A DNA stretch of 64,000 nucleotides. Origin: Patescibacteria group bacterium. GTDB taxonomy: Bacteria; Patescibacteriota; Microgenomatia; 0-14-0-10-38-17. Made by a program: the position numbers and the translations under genes. The notes beneath the pieces were generated by a model. It was not told the DNA's origin and made no database searches. It saw only the letters and a program-made list of their open reading frames with translations. The stretch lies in assembly GCA_050947035.1 (NCBI GenBank), contig JBMNVW010000003.1, forward strand, positions 25,992-89,991, in the 5' to 3' direction. Numbering within the stretch: the first letter of the stretch is position 1; the number at the start of each line of letters is the position of its first letter. Positions 252 to 44,555 of this stretch are shown here, in pieces.

Positions 252-328
252 TGGTCGGGGATGCCGGACTCGAACCGGCGGCCTCACGCACCCCATGCGC
301 GCGCGCTAGCCATCTGCGCCAATCCCCG
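252..328 (-). tRNA. tRNA-Pro (anticodon GGG), CCA encoded
   Basis: Reverse complement folds as acceptor CGGGGAT/ATCCCCG, D-arm GCGC-AGATGGCTA-GCGC, anticodon stem CGCGC/GCGTG with loop AUGGGGU (U33, GGG, G37), T-arm GCCGG-TTCGAGT-CCGGC and ACCA tail. Close to the E. coli tRNA-Pro pattern CGGnGATTGGCGCAG. Confidence 0.85.
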
Positions 329-577
329 ATAATATTAACTTGCCAGACTCAATATCTTTATTAATCAAATCATGGCTTTTTTTATATTTTTTCTCAAATT
401 TAGCCGCTTCCTTGATTGTTTTAAACTTTCTATAGGCATATAGGACCGGGGGTCTTCGATATTTGGTTGAGAAAACCCGTCCATTATTGTGTTGTTTTAA
501 TCTCTTGCCAAGATTAATGGTTGAACCAATATATTTTTTGCTATCTTTCAGATTTTTAATATATAAGTATAGGACAT
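306..577 (-). CDS. GIY-YIG nuclease family protein (small COG2827/YhbQ-like type). Apparent 1-nt frameshift in an A5 run near the N-terminus, and the 3' end overlaps tRNA-Pro
   Basis: Frame A reads ATG(577) MSYTYILKI then stop. The +1 frame continues ...NLKDSKKYIGSTINLGKRLKQHNNGRVFSTKYRRPPVLYAYRKFKTIKEAAKFEKKYKKSHDLINKDI... to TAG at 306-308, which lies inside the tRNA D-loop. Motifs Y-YILK, YIGST-NL-RL--HN-G, RRP, E-F---EA and KK-S match GIY-YIG. No canonical in-frame start exists for the long frame, so it is not in the ORF track. Confidence 0.6.
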
Positions 578-590
578 ATTAAAAATTTCA

Positions 591-700
591 CACTCGCGCA
601 CCCCGTCGGGCAGAGCCGTCAGCTGAAAAGCCTTTAGCTGGTAGCCTTCTGGGCGGCGCCCATGCGCGCGCTAAGCTAAATAATTGCGCCACATCCCGTT
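591..700 (-). other. degenerate tRNA-Pro-like 5' half (pseudo-tRNA fragment) with a ~52-nt insertion at the anticodon-loop position; no T-arm or 3' acceptor
   Basis: Minus-strand GGGATGTGGCGCA..GCGCGCGCATGGG[52-nt insert]GGGGTGCGCGAGTG is collinear with tRNA-Pro CGGGGATTGGCGCA..GCGCGCGCGCATGGGGTGCGTGAGG. The GCGCGCGCATGGG and GGGGTGCG blocks are shared. Confidence 0.45.
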
Positions 701-759
701 TACTTTTTTTAGAGCAAGTTGTATTTTAGCAAAACTTATGTCACAATAAAAGACAAGAT

Positions 760-2576: not shown

Positions 2577-3752
2577 ATGACTAAAAAAGATCCAAAAAAA
2601 TTAACAGAAAAAGTTAACCAACTAGAAAAAGAGAACAAGGCCCTTAAAGAAAAGCTTCTTTTAGAATTAGACCAAGAGCTAAAAGCCAAGGTTGCTAAAA
2701 AAATCGCTAAGGCCGAAGAAGAGATTAAGTTAACTTCCGAGGAGAAAGCTAAGCAAATTTTGGTTGAGGCGATGAAACACGGGGCAACTGATATTACCGC
2801 TGAATATACCGCTTCTTCAGTTAAGCTTCCTTCAGAAGATATTAAAGGGAAAATTATTGGCCGAGAAGGGCGAAATATTCGTGTTTTTGAACGGGTAACC
2901 GGAGTAGATCTAGACCTAGACGAAGAGGGAGAAATTCGCCTTTCTTCTTTTGATTCTCAAAGAAGAGAAGTAGCCAAAAGAGCCTTAAAAAAGCTAATTC
3001 GTGATGGGCGAATTCAACCTAATCGAATTGAAGAAGTAGTTGATCAGGTTAAAAAAGAGGTCGATAAAATTATTTTGGAAGAAGGCAATAAGCTCTGCCA
3101 AGCGGTGGGGGTTTATGATTTACCCTTAGAGTTAGTGAAGATGATTGGTAAGTTTAAGTTTCGCTTTTCTTACGGCCAAAACCTCCTGGTTCATACTTTA
3201 GAAGAAACTAAAATCGGCATGGAAATTGCCCGTCAATTAAAGGCGGATGTTGAAGTTGTTCGTTTGGGCTGTTTGCTTCACGATATTGGCAAAATAGCCA
3301 GTGACCGCAAAGGTTCTCATGTTGATTTGGGAGTGGAGATTGCCAGAAAACACGATATGCCAAAAAAGGTAATTGCCGCCATTGCCGAGCACCATGAGGA
3401 TAAACCCTTTTCCTCAATTGAATCGGCAATTATTTGGATTGCTGATGCTATTTCCGGCTCTCGACCGGCGGCTCGTTACGAACCCCATGAAGACTATGTT
3501 GAGCGTATGAGCAAGATTGAAGAAGTGGCCAAGTCGTTTTCTGGAGTAGTTGACGTGGCCGCTTATCAAGCAGGAAGAGAGGTTCGAGTGGTGGTTGAGC
3601 CGGATGAAATATCAGATGATGAAGTAACAATTTTAGCTCATGAGATTGCGGAGAAGCTAGAAGAAATGGCTCGTTGGGCCGGTCGAATTAGGGTAACCGT
3701 AATTAGAGAAATTAGGGCCCAAGAAACTGCCCCCTTAACAGAAGAAGACTAA
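2577..3752 (+). CDS. rny: ribonuclease Y (KH + HD domains; short form without a long N-terminal region)
   Basis: KGKIIGREGRNIRVFERVTGVDL (KH GxxG) and LLHDIGK..GSHVDLGVEIARKH..HH (HD) align closely with B. subtilis Rny. The C-terminus AGREVRVVVEP..VTVIRE is conserved. Confidence 0.9.
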   Translation: MTKKDPKKLTEKVNQLEKENKALKEKLLLELDQELKAKVAKKIAKAEEEIKLTSEEKAKQILVEAMKHGATDITAEYTASSVKLPSEDIKGKIIGREGRNIRVFERVTGVDLDLDEEGEIRLSSFDSQRREVAKRALKKLIRDGRIQPNRIEEVVDQVKKEVDKIILEEGNKLCQAVGVYDLPLELVKMIGKFKFRFSYGQNLLVHTLEETKIGMEIARQLKADVEVVRLGCLLHDIGKIASDRKGSHVDLGVEIARKHDMPKKVIAAIAEHHEDKPFSSIESAIIWIADAISGSRPAARYEPHEDYVERMSKIEEVAKSFSGVVDVAAYQAGREVRVVVEPDEISDDEVTILAHEIAEKLEEMARWAGRIRVTVIREIRAQETAPLTEED

Positions 3753-30543: not shown

Positions 30544-30615
30544 TGCCGGGTGGAGTAATGGTAGTCTCATCGCGCTCTGAACGCGAAGATCTAGGTTCGA
30601 GTCCTAGCCCGGCAA
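30544..30615 (+). tRNA. tRNA-Gln (anticodon CUG), CCA not encoded
   Basis: U1-A72 acceptor TGCCGGG/CCCGGCA, 3-bp D-stem, anticodon stem TCGCG/CGCGA with loop CUCUGAA, T-arm CTAGG-TTCGAGT-CCTAG. Confidence 0.8.
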
Positions 30616-30845
30616 CATTAGTTGCTGGGCTTAGACGAGAACCTAGTAAAGGCTCTGATTAACAAGACGAAAAAGCCGGTCGAGCTGTTGTTATATTAAT
30701 TAACAAGGCAAGAATACGGTCCTTGTCGTCTTCGAGTCCTAGCCGGGCAACATTAGTTGCTGGGTTTAGACGAGAACCTAGTAAAGGCTCTGATTAACAA
30801 GACGAAAAAGACAATCGTGTTGTTGTTATCTCAACCAAGCTATCA
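30597..30845 (+). repeat. ~134-nt tandem direct duplication (about 1.9 copies) beginning inside the tRNA-Gln T-loop
   Basis: TTCGAGTCCTAGCCCGGCAACATTAGTTGCTGGGCTTAGACGAGAACCTAGTAAAGGCTCTGATTAACAAGACGAAAAAG at 30597-30675 is repeated at 30731-30810 with 2 substitutions. The following ~30 nt are also similar. Confidence 0.75.
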
Positions 30846-44350: not shown

Positions 44351-44373
44351 AAGTAGCCCCAACCAGATTCGAA
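44351..44373 (-). repeat. 23-bp direct repeat of the tRNA-Glu 3' end (T-loop + acceptor 3' strand + 3 nt), 110 nt downstream of the tRNA
   Basis: AAGTAGCCCCAACCAGATTCGAA is identical at 44351-44373 and 44481-44503. Confidence 0.8.
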
Positions 44374-44483
44374 GATGACACGGACCATTTTCTTGCCGTG
44401 AGGGTTGGTGTAATGACAGCGCGGTTGTTTTTCTTGTTTTGATTGTCAGAATTCTTGACCAGTTCGGATCCGATTGGGCCAAG

Positions 44484-44555
44484 TAGCCCCAACCAGATTC
44501 GAACTGGTATTACTAGGATGAGAACCTAGCGTCCTAACCATTAGACGATGGGGCC
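44484..44555 (-). tRNA. tRNA-Glu (anticodon CUC), CCA not encoded
   Basis: Reverse complement: GGCCCCA-TC-GTC-TAATGGTTAG-GAC-G-CTAGG-TTCTCAT-CCTAG-TAAT-ACCAG-TTCGAAT-CTGGT-TGGGGCT-A. G1-U72 wobble. Confidence 0.8.

Follow-up and report, generated by a model that had tools for sequence, protein, structure and literature searches.

Positions 252–698 (minus strand) of the Patescibacteria DNA analysed here, a window of 64,000 nt from contig JBMNVW010000003.1 (GenBank assembly GCA_050947035.1), contain a gene for a small GIY-YIG nuclease that is fused to a canonical tRNA-Pro(GGG) gene, here called N, and is preceded by a fragment of a different tRNA-Pro-like gene, here called V. We read this locus as an old and decaying selfish cassette of the homing type, consisting of the GIY-YIG open reading frame (ORF) and N, that split the resident V and supplied a replacement tRNA, and we place the probability of this reading at about 0.6. 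The feature itself is real. At the equivalent site beside the RecA gene, relatives carry N alone, V alone or the cassette, and the layout is repeated at numerous tRNA genes, both in uncultured Patescibacteria and in some genomes labelled as other phyla. An earlier interpretation made from the sequence alone (the sequence-only reading) had proposed a mobile or formerly mobile GIY-YIG cassette tied to tRNA-Pro, and this proposal agrees with the empty and V-only sites and with the presence of the ORF-tRNA unit in unrelated neighbourhoods.

Alleles at the RecA-adjacent site

RecA homologues were searched and the equivalent RecA-adjacent site was read in the relatives, which are given here with the amino acid identity of their RecA to that of the window. 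N is the only one of the two genes in L171 and L172 (91%; CGGGGAT...TTCGAGT...ATCCCCG) and in L173 (85%). These three sites have no nuclease, stub or insert and are therefore empty sites. A complete V alone is found in L175 (96%) and L177-179 (93%), and in L174 (99%), where it is accompanied by a 3' fragment of N downstream. V stub(s), the ORF and N together are found in the window and in L001 (93%). The arrangement is thus not identical in all relatives, and the close pairs window/L174 (RecA 99% identical at the nucleotide level) and L001/L177 (94%) differ in the presence of the cassette, which goes against simple vertical inheritance of an immobile unit. A single base (A9G) separates the window N from the tRNA-Pro that alone occupies the empty site of L171.

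The complete V gene (L174:2864-2938, L175:2266-2342 and L177:2365-2439, all on the minus strand) begins with CGGGATG and ends with CATCCCG, with AGTTAGTTA in the D-loop and GGCGGAG in the T-loop. It resembles tRNA-Pro(GGG), with compensated changes in the acceptor and a D-loop that lacks GG. In L174 and L177, V is called as tRNA-Pro by ARAGORN and falls below the 29-bit threshold of Rfam RF00005. V may be an unusual gene that still functions, a pseudogene, or an allele that resists the nuclease. The N gene of the window, which the sequence-only reading had correctly recognized as complete, is called by ARAGORN and was also found by the covariance model (RF00005, 54.6 bits at 255-328).

The piece at 700-591 had been taken for a copy of the 5' half of the adjacent tRNA-Pro. 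It is tRNA-like, and no T arm or 3' acceptor follows the segment at 603-593, but it is not a copy of its neighbour. The stub has a local alignment score of 55 to the complete V of L174 (shuffle maximum 28), with 35/37 bases the same and a 3-nt insertion in the D-loop, its decay amounting to two substitutions and this insertion. The score to N is 31, which just exceeds the maximum of 30 reached by 1000 dinucleotide shuffles (mean 16.6, sd 2.8). The similarity of 591-700 to tRNA-Pro is thus greater than that of shuffled sequence for both genes, although Rfam gave no RF00005 match there even at E up to 10. Judged from these alignments, the stub belongs to V, a gene other than the adjacent N, and what had been described as a flanking partial duplicate would be what is left of a resident V split by the cassette, which brought N with it.

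The stub reads CGGGATGTGGCGC...CATGGG at 698-659 and is interrupted in the anticodon G-run by an insert (Table 1), first described as ~52 nt of inserted sequence and now seen to be 55 nt long and a variant of a recurrent, dispersed 26-nt element. Beyond the insert, GGGTGCGCGAG provides the last tRNA-derived bases ahead of the cassette junction. In the window, L001, L007, L012 and L162 this junction falls at tRNA position 42-45, and the spacer between stub and ATG is 7-25 nt in L001, L007, L010 and L012. The whole unit is ~450 bp, and the GIY-YIG frame is the only ORF in it with a domain match, the other short ORFs overlapping this frame or the tRNA sequences. Exact-sequence lookups for the window RecA and for P0001, the NCBI product of the window ORF, returned no matching record. 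With its frameshifted ORF, decayed stub and disrupted element, the window copy is a relic.

Table 1. Features of the tRNA-Pro locus and its upstream region (positions of the window)
Feature	Position	Strand	Basis
Canonical tRNA-Pro(GGG) N, functional-looking, fused to the 3' end of the ORF	252..328	minus	ARAGORN, Rfam RF00005
GIY-YIG nuclease ORF, minimal Slx1/UPF0213 type, frameshifted	306..577	minus	Translations, PF01541, homologue P0002 in L001
AT-rich 15-nt spacer TGTGAAATTTTTAAT, from stub to ATG	578..592	minus	Sequence; no Shine-Dalgarno-like sequence
GGGTGCGCGAG, positions ~37-45 of resident V (3' anticodon stem)	593..603	minus	Alignments
55-nt insert in the anticodon G-run, degenerate copy of the 26-nt element CGCCGCCCAGAGGGCTCTGCCCGGCG	604..658	minus	Element comparison
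Nt 1-36 (5' part) of V, the resident tRNA-Pro-like gene of non-canonical type	659..698	minus	Local alignment to V of L174
TGCTAAAAT, extended -10-like element	723..731	minus	Conserved upstream in relatives

The resident V persists as stubs in the window and in L001, beside the replacement N. In L001, the ORF and N are flanked by both halves of V, with a 5' acceptor (CGGGATG) upstream that can pair with CATCCCG downstream. In L174, the 3' fragment of N starts 33 nt after V and is followed by the flank aaaagccc, the same as that found after N in the window. The T-loop of this N fragment (L174 ~2760-2830, minus strand) is interrupted by a small palindrome, CCCGCCTAAAACGGCGGG, and the 33-nt spacer ahead of it contains GTCGCCTGAGGCGAC. 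Tiny GC-rich palindromes of different kinds are thus present in tRNA loops.

A history of the site in three steps would account for these alleles. N would have been native, as it still is in the outgroups; V would then have displaced N, leaving the N remnant 3' of it; and the ORF with N would have entered V in the lineages of the window and L001, the window cassette having decayed since. The window allele could have arisen from an allele like that of L174, the 5' part of V and the N remnant serving as the two arms in repair, or alternatively from an L001-like allele by deletion between the N repeats. The reverse reading, prompted by the native N of the outgroups and with N as the resident and V as the incoming gene, was dropped given the V-only alleles in five relatives, and because of these alleles the stub is taken as the old resident in a second round of replacement.

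The nuclease ORF and its predicted expression

Translation from the ATG (577-575) gives MSYTYILKI and then a stop, and the GIY-YIG domain resumes in the next frame (...NLKDSKKYIGST...SGIGADG, then stop). Relative to the homologue in L001 (P0002), which is intact, 82% identical, syntenic and likewise fused to N, one base is missing at the A5 run at 557-553. The frame-corrected product of 90 aa matches PF01541 (57.3 bits, E=1.9e-15; cut-off 22.6 bits), and a six-frame search of the window with the same HMM gave a match at 318-563. The 90-codon GIY-YIG gene of the sequence-only reading therefore stands for the corrected product but not for the DNA as read. P0001 has 84 aa, starts after the frameshift and is without the first strand. 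The window ORF is probably a pseudogene, and the frameshift in the A run may be a sequencing error. Programmed frameshifting is unlikely because there is no slippery heptamer at the A5 run.

Gene callers have also extended members of this family. P0002 (L001:5001-5381) was given a false N-terminus of 36 aa, containing AAQRALPSGVRE twice, that runs through the tRNA stub and the element. Many family members are listed at 105-130 aa, with the domain beginning at residue 20-47, and the C-terminus of P0005 reads through the 26-nt element. The family is large: 22,510 cluster representatives reach E<=1e-3 and 4,641 reach E<=1e-10, and their length is mostly 85-120 aa. Tyr16, Arg26, His30 and Glu62 are invariant in the family and Tyr5 is nearly so. 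From the order of the motif, these residues are candidates for the catalytic roles of GIY-YIG enzymes (Tyr of GIY, Tyr of YIG, Arg, His and the metal-binding Glu). In the window copy, the first strand, including Tyr5, is out of frame.

The structure model and the profile comparisons were made with the L001 homologue. The AF2 model (pLDDT 86.8) has a beta-beta-alpha-beta-alpha-alpha fold and its top PDB matches are all GIY-YIG domains. The best Foldseek matches were to At-HIGLE (7wme), Slx1 (7cq3, 6sei and 4xm5) and the UPF0213 protein BH0048 (1zg2), with probability 1.0 (7wme, 7cq3 and 6sei), TM-scores of 0.58-0.68 and 30-35% identity for the nearest Slx1/UPF0213 structures. The catalytic domain of I-TevI was a weak match (probability 0.13). 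The profile search agreed (1zg2, 5.1e-9; 1ywl, 3.3e-7; SLX1 homologue 7wme, 1e-4), making the Slx1/UPF0213 proteins the nearest relatives of the nuclease in both sequence and structure (profile E 5e-9 to 1e-4). However, the protein of 85-90 aa is the GIY-YIG domain alone. It does not have the C-terminal PHD/RING zinc finger of Slx1, no Slx4-like partner is in view, and no DNA-binding extension of the I-TevI/Seg type or other additional domain was found in it. It thus resembles the stand-alone UPF0213 proteins rather than Slx1 proper. Residues 1-32 gave a weak match to the NCBIfam model 'group I intron endonuclease' (31.3 bits, below the 56.05-bit cut-off). On the strength of the model and profiles, the nuclease is placed in the structure-selective URI/Slx1 branch. 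Because of this placement, and because there is no zinc finger or DNA-binding extension, there is some basis for supposing that the enzyme would read DNA shape, such as the hairpins of tRNA genes and palindromic inserts, rather than a long sequence.

The sequence TGnTAAAATACAA has been retained ahead of V or N in L173, L174, L175, L177 and L001, and is found directly upstream of the ORF in the type-A loci L003 and L011. A strict scan for the sigma-70 consensus did not call TGnTAAAAT, so the putative promoter is recognized from conservation. The window version, TGCTAAAAT, probably drives the stub, ORF and tRNA as one transcript, given this conservation and the overlap of ORF and tRNA, which leaves no intergenic space. 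As the sequence-only reading had stated, there is no recognizable ribosome-binding site ahead of the ATG, and the stop codon of the ORF (TAG, 308-306) is within the first 23 nt of the tRNA (nt 21-23 of N). Co-transcription and release of N by RNase P are plausible. Expression of the cassette would then ride on the tRNA promoter, and, with the stop codon inside the tRNA, cleavage by RNase P at tRNA +1 would leave a non-stop mRNA and keep nuclease levels low. The further suggestion that the stub serves as a processing or stability element for the nuclease mRNA finds no support, as the stub is degenerate, fails the tRNA model and is absent from the type-A loci.

Recurrence of the layout and the 26-nt element

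The layout of a tRNA stub with a GC-rich insert, the ORF and a complete tRNA was seen at tRNAs for Pro, Leu, Trp, Phe, Met, Gln and Lys. Every protein-first hit of 52% identity or more (L001-L012) has, on the same strand, a tRNA-Pro(GGG) that abuts or overlaps the end of the ORF, in differing neighbourhoods, and pairwise comparison found the flanks of the cassette loci to be unrelated. A set of 42 family loci drawn from species-representative genomes includes 29 with a tRNA on the same strand, no more than 300 nt upstream or 150 nt downstream of the ORF, where 2.7% would be expected from the flanks of those loci (P ~1e-35). The tRNA-Pro cassettes include 21 that are unique. An upstream tRNA-Pro stub is present in 14/21, and its likeness to the downstream tRNA ranges from identity over 35 nt (L012, L064 and L082) to great difference (L145 and the window). 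The stop codon of the ORF is formed by U8-A9-G10 of the tRNA in 11/21, and the A9G change in the window and L001 shifts the stop to a TAG in the D-loop. Displaced 3'-end remnants are found downstream of the new tRNA in L001, L010, L018, L024 and L128, and tRNA stubs or 3' remnants persist in L010, L012, L018, L024, L032 and L128. Decayed copies, with in-frame stops in L011 and L117 and a frameshift in the window, also occur.

More distant homologues (36-50% identity) share this layout. In L024, nt 1-37 of tRNA-Leu(CAA) are identical, a 62-nt double hairpin is inserted at 35/36 and a second insert-bearing arm follows the new tRNA. The tRNA-Trp of L032 contains a 24-nt perfect palindrome and the tRNA-Gln of L029 one of 32 nt. 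When folded, the inserts of these three loci are far more stable than shuffled sequence (z = -3.4 to -7.2). Further examples are L018 (tRNA-Phe), L036 (tRNA-Met) and L078 (tRNA-Leu(TAG)), and the order is a mirror image (complete tRNA, ORF, palindrome, 3' fragment) in L015, L039 and L049. Rfam searches of eight related loci found only tRNAs, and the hairpin inserts match no described family.

One metagenome-assembled genome (MAG), CAZPUR01, has two family members, L009 with tRNA-Pro(GGG) downstream and L020 with tRNA-Trp upstream, and this suggests that nuclease subfamilies are specialized on different tRNA genes. Several contigs or RecA sequences that are Patescibacteria-like are labelled as Gammaproteobacteria, Pseudomonadales or Bathyarchaeia (L009, L010, L012, L020-L022, P0088 and P0094). 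These labels probably reflect mis-binning or mislabelling, and for this reason the apparent breadth across phyla should be treated cautiously.

A two-hairpin element of ~90-130 nt (TGAACyACTCGC...GAGTTCATGGCA...) is found in L028, L030, L037, L040, L041, L042 and L046, directly after tRNA-Asn, tRNA-Gln or tRNA-Gly and ahead of the ORF of a distant GIY-YIG subfamily. A similar form beginning TGAAGT is present in L035, L047 and L050 (tRNA-Tyr and tRNA-Asn), and the 62-nt insert of L024 looks related to it. No Rfam family was matched by this element in L024, L030, L037, L041 and L042.

The insert in the window leads to a second recurrent component. Observations on the 26-nt element CGCCGCCCAGAGGGCTCTGCCCGGCG were made in the related loci L051-L170. 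A scan for an exact 22-mer located it in at least 120 metagenome stretches and, among the matches listed, it is always between G-runs (gg-CGCCGCCCAGAGGGCTCTGCCC-ggcggg), in unrelated contexts. Its ends are 5-nt CGCCG/CGGCG plus the flanking G-runs, and the net insertion is 28 nt in L012. Its sites within tRNA genes are the anticodon GGGG, the GG of the D-loop or the 5' CGGGG, and the canonical form is at the same anticodon position as the window insert in L001, L010, L012, L064 and L082. In all hits with at least 52% protein identity a copy (centre-expanded in L007/L008) is within ~60 nt of the ORF, and its sequence hardly varies despite protein divergence down to 52% identity. In six loci it is between the ORF and the tRNA: these are L003, L011, L087 and L162, and the tRNA-Lys loci L100 and L140, where it is reversed. 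The window copy has two substitutions and a central expansion of 27-29 nt flanked by a GGCT repeat; other centre-expanded variants are in L007 (+5), L137 (+13) and L122 (+33). An alternative MAFFT alignment, with the insert matched to the T arm, was rejected because the insert matches the dispersed element.

Most copies are solo. Among the matches listed, a nuclease is nearby in 20/106 unique element loci and ~86/106 have no GIY-YIG within 900 nt. A long reading frame, stop-free for at least 60 codons on each side, crosses 32/86 of the solo copies, and the encoded peptide is GAAQRALPGG or, on the opposite strand, PAGQSPLGGA. In L081 and L168 the element follows a CPKCG motif, with ...ILRRTRKGRKFYGC downstream. 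This GIY-YIG subfamily is the only consistent protein neighbour of the element. As single-stranded DNA, the 26 nt do not fold into a hairpin better than shuffles do (z = -0.5), and for this reason the element is described as GC-rich and partly self-complementary rather than as a true palindrome. No canonical copy was found elsewhere in the window with up to 3 mismatches allowed, the centre-expanded copy at 604-658 being the only one. The element was not found in viral contigs, hence there is no sign of a phage vector, and no description of its sequence was found in the searchable literature. It is an undescribed yet widespread element and not anonymous filler.

Partial tRNA copies are also found away from nuclease genes. 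Stubs or 3' remnants beside a complete copy of the same tRNA, with no nuclease ORF between, were seen in L103 (Gly and Pro UGG), L167 (Arg), L093 (Ile) and L121 (Ala), and several of these stubs carry the 26-nt element in the D-loop. In the window, a 104-nt unit starting in the T-loop of tRNA-Gln(CTG) is repeated 135 nt downstream with 91% identity (30544-30834, plus strand), and the last 23 nt of tRNA-Glu(CTC) are repeated exactly 130 nt downstream (44351-44555, minus strand). Each of these repeats follows a small hairpin with the loop CAAGAAnAyGGT, and there is no GIY-YIG at either. All three tRNA genes of the window thus have an adjacent partial copy.

Proposed mechanism, alternatives and known systems

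In the mechanism we propose, the cassette would be a GIY-YIG gene of ~85-90 aa joined head-to-tail to the canonical N. A minimal enzyme of the Slx1/UPF0213 type would break the DNA of the tRNA gene in cassette-free alleles, and the break would be repaired from a cassette-bearing allele via tRNA-derived homology on both sides. The ORF and tRNA would be copied in, and the resident gene would be split and functionally replaced by the tRNA of the cassette. Homing would then be of the 'mobile ORF with replacement gene end' kind. In favour of this are the N-only, V-only and cassette alleles at one site, the V stubs beside a replacement N, and the recurrence of the unit in unrelated flanks.

Several points weigh against this reading. 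Cleavage, homing and transcription are inferred from sequence, as is the part played by the mini-element, and, as read, the window copy is inactive. Homing to a specific sequence is not a given, because there is no DNA-binding extension like that of I-TevI or Seg and the fold is far nearer to Slx1 than to I-TevI. The divergence between the window and L001 ORFs (~82% nucleotide identity) is close to that of RecA (84%), and an ancient presence with repeated loss is therefore as compatible with the data as repeated gain. No recent transfer was caught; the sampled ORFs are all diverged, with at most 79% nucleotide identity between unrelated loci. Direct repeats of tRNA pieces with the insert flank the cassette in L001 and L024, which simple two-armed gap repair does not predict, and the constant distance of 7-17 nt between insert and junction fits such repair poorly. 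A stub, the element and a complete tRNA are found without the ORF in L093, L103 and L121, so tRNA duplication can exist without a nuclease gene, through ORF loss or another cause.

The last of these points sustain the strongest competing explanation, which we regard as distinctly less probable than the cassette. Here the mini-element would be primary, inserting at G-runs or loops of tRNA genes, and breakage or replication stalling at the resulting hairpin would give rise to partial tandem duplications that restore an intact tRNA, with the GIY-YIG protein as a trans-acting nuclease or a passenger. A precedent for the former is RAYT, which acts as the trans-acting nuclease for REP elements. The abundance of the element, mostly away from any GIY-YIG gene, its constant placement between G-runs and in tRNA D-loops, anticodon loops and 5' ends, and the ORF-less loci all favour this explanation. 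So do the position of the stub junctions, 7-17 nt 3' of the element whichever tRNA position this is, and the centre of the element, which is a hot spot for duplication or insertion (the window, L007, L122 and L137). The presence of the element beside the ORF in all close nuclease homologues, the Slx1-like, structure-selective class of the nuclease and the insert-bearing arms that flank the cassette as direct repeats in L001 and L024 also speak for it. However, the hairpin of the 26-nt element is no better than shuffles, distant nuclease subfamilies have the same architecture with unrelated inserts, and the 64-kb window contains no copy beyond the degenerate one. Moreover, N and V are different genes, and a purely local duplication leaves that unexplained.

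An immobile, vertically inherited housekeeping gene that is co-transcribed with tRNA-Pro, for instance a repair or processing factor, with the stub as an accidental local duplication, appears improbable. The tight, conserved fusion of ORF and tRNA, the intactness of most copies, the size of the family and an ORF divergence between the window and L001 that roughly tracks RecA all speak for such a gene. Set against these are the empty sites and nuclease-free alleles in relatives with up to 99% RecA identity, the varied neighbourhoods, the decayed copies (window, L011 and L117), the different subfamilies at different tRNAs, two of them in one MAG (L009 and L020), and the origin of the stub from a gene other than the adjacent tRNA.

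Group I introns are found in the anticodon loops of Patescibacteria tRNA genes (PMC13011429), and the locus shares with them the phylum, the tRNA-gene target and the interrupted anticodon loop. That paper mentions neither GIY-YIG nor tRNA-Pro. Descent of the locus from such an intron, one that lay in the tRNA-Pro anticodon loop and carried a GIY-YIG homing endonuclease gene, would be in keeping with the position of the insert, the frequency of these introns in the phylum and the sub-threshold NCBIfam match over the first 32 residues. We consider it very unlikely and it was dropped, because Rfam searches of 1-1200 (E up to 10) found the canonical tRNA alone, with no group I intron or ribozyme and no tRNA match for the stub. 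The insert is an element of the 26-nt class and not a ribozyme, a complete tRNA rather than a 3' exon follows the ORF, and relatives have a complete V without an intron. The gene is here replaced by a second complete copy and not restored by splicing. Least probable of all is an assembly or binning artefact, or an islet placed at a tRNA gene by a site-specific integrase: the source is a MAG and tRNA genes are classic integration sites, but the same architecture is present in dozens of independent assemblies from different projects, the ~450-bp unit has the GIY-YIG ORF as its only domain-bearing ORF and no integrase, and the duplicated part is the 5' part of the tRNA and not a 3' att core.

Returning to the cassette, its closest analogues are mobile ORFs (mORFs) of fungal mitochondria (Allomyces macrogynus atp6; Glomus atp6, atp9, cox2 and nad3), which introduce a foreign replacement for one end of a gene while the native end stays behind as a duplicate (PMC3630166). 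In both systems a free-standing endonuclease ORF (GIY-YIG in the case of atp9) is inside a conserved gene together with a foreign gene copy, partial in the mORFs, the native part is kept adjacent as a duplicated, diverged fragment, and close relatives have an empty site (PMC3630166). Unlike the mORFs, the window locus has a bacterial host and a tRNA-gene target, the whole tRNA is fused to the 3' end of the ORF and what has been displaced is chiefly the 5' end, the nuclease consists of one Slx1-like domain of 85-90 aa, and a dispersed GC-rich mini-element is at the junction. The sequence-only reading knew of no described arrangement like this one. For bacteria or tRNA genes that still holds, as no description of tRNA-linked UPF0213-type GIY-YIG cassettes was found in the literature searched, but a close analogue exists in the fungal mitochondria.

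SegB of phage T4 is a free-standing GIY-YIG homing endonuclease encoded in a tRNA cluster; it recognizes a T-psi-C stem-loop motif, cuts the tRNA genes of relatives that lack SegB and spreads the neighbouring tRNA genes (PMC2330249). The likeness is that of a GIY-YIG gene among tRNA genes. SegB is, by its description, set apart from the window locus as a free-standing phage gene between two tRNA genes, and a split target, an ORF-tRNA overlap and a palindromic element are not described for it. I-TevI is, as noted, only weakly matched by the model, and for the Slx1/UPF0213 proteins we found no report of tRNA-gene linkage or mobility. In being short and dispersed, rich in GC and partly self-complementary, the 26-nt element is like REP elements with their RAYT proteins and the palindromic elements of Rickettsia. 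The latter lie in frame inside ORFs, as do the solo copies crossed by long reading frames. The 26-nt element is, however, much shorter than either, prefers G-runs, has no Y1 transposase in view and has this GIY-YIG subfamily as its sole consistent protein partner, with a hairpin no stabler than shuffles.

A broader view is possible, and we offer it tentatively, with clearly less confidence than the cassette itself. The loci may belong to an undescribed and widespread class of tRNA-gene parasite, present in Patescibacteria and some genomes labelled as other phyla, in which a minimal Slx1-like nuclease without a sequence-reading domain recognizes the hairpin or cruciform DNA of tRNA genes and of small GC-rich or palindromic mini-elements, and nuclease, mini-element and replacement tRNA form one system that splits and replaces tRNA genes again and again, with serial turnover from N to V and back to N. 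Variants such as V, whose D- and T-loops depart from the canonical tRNA, could then be alleles selected for resistance.

Some consequences are practical. Some tools report stubs and non-canonical copies as tRNAs, and the nuclease ORFs are mis-extended through stubs (P0002) or mis-started (P0001). A 26-nt element that seeks G-runs and is in frame in proteins offers a lead of its own on the way in which tiny insertions shape the proteins of these genomes, and a stop codon inside a tRNA is a testable case of RNase P processing in competition with translation. If the cassette reading is true, it would extend 'split and replace' homing by endonucleases from the protein genes of fungal mitochondria to bacterial tRNA genes, would give the large uncharacterized UPF0213/COG2827-type GIY-YIG family its first biological context, and would explain the litter of tRNA fragments at the tRNA loci of reduced-genome Patescibacteria.

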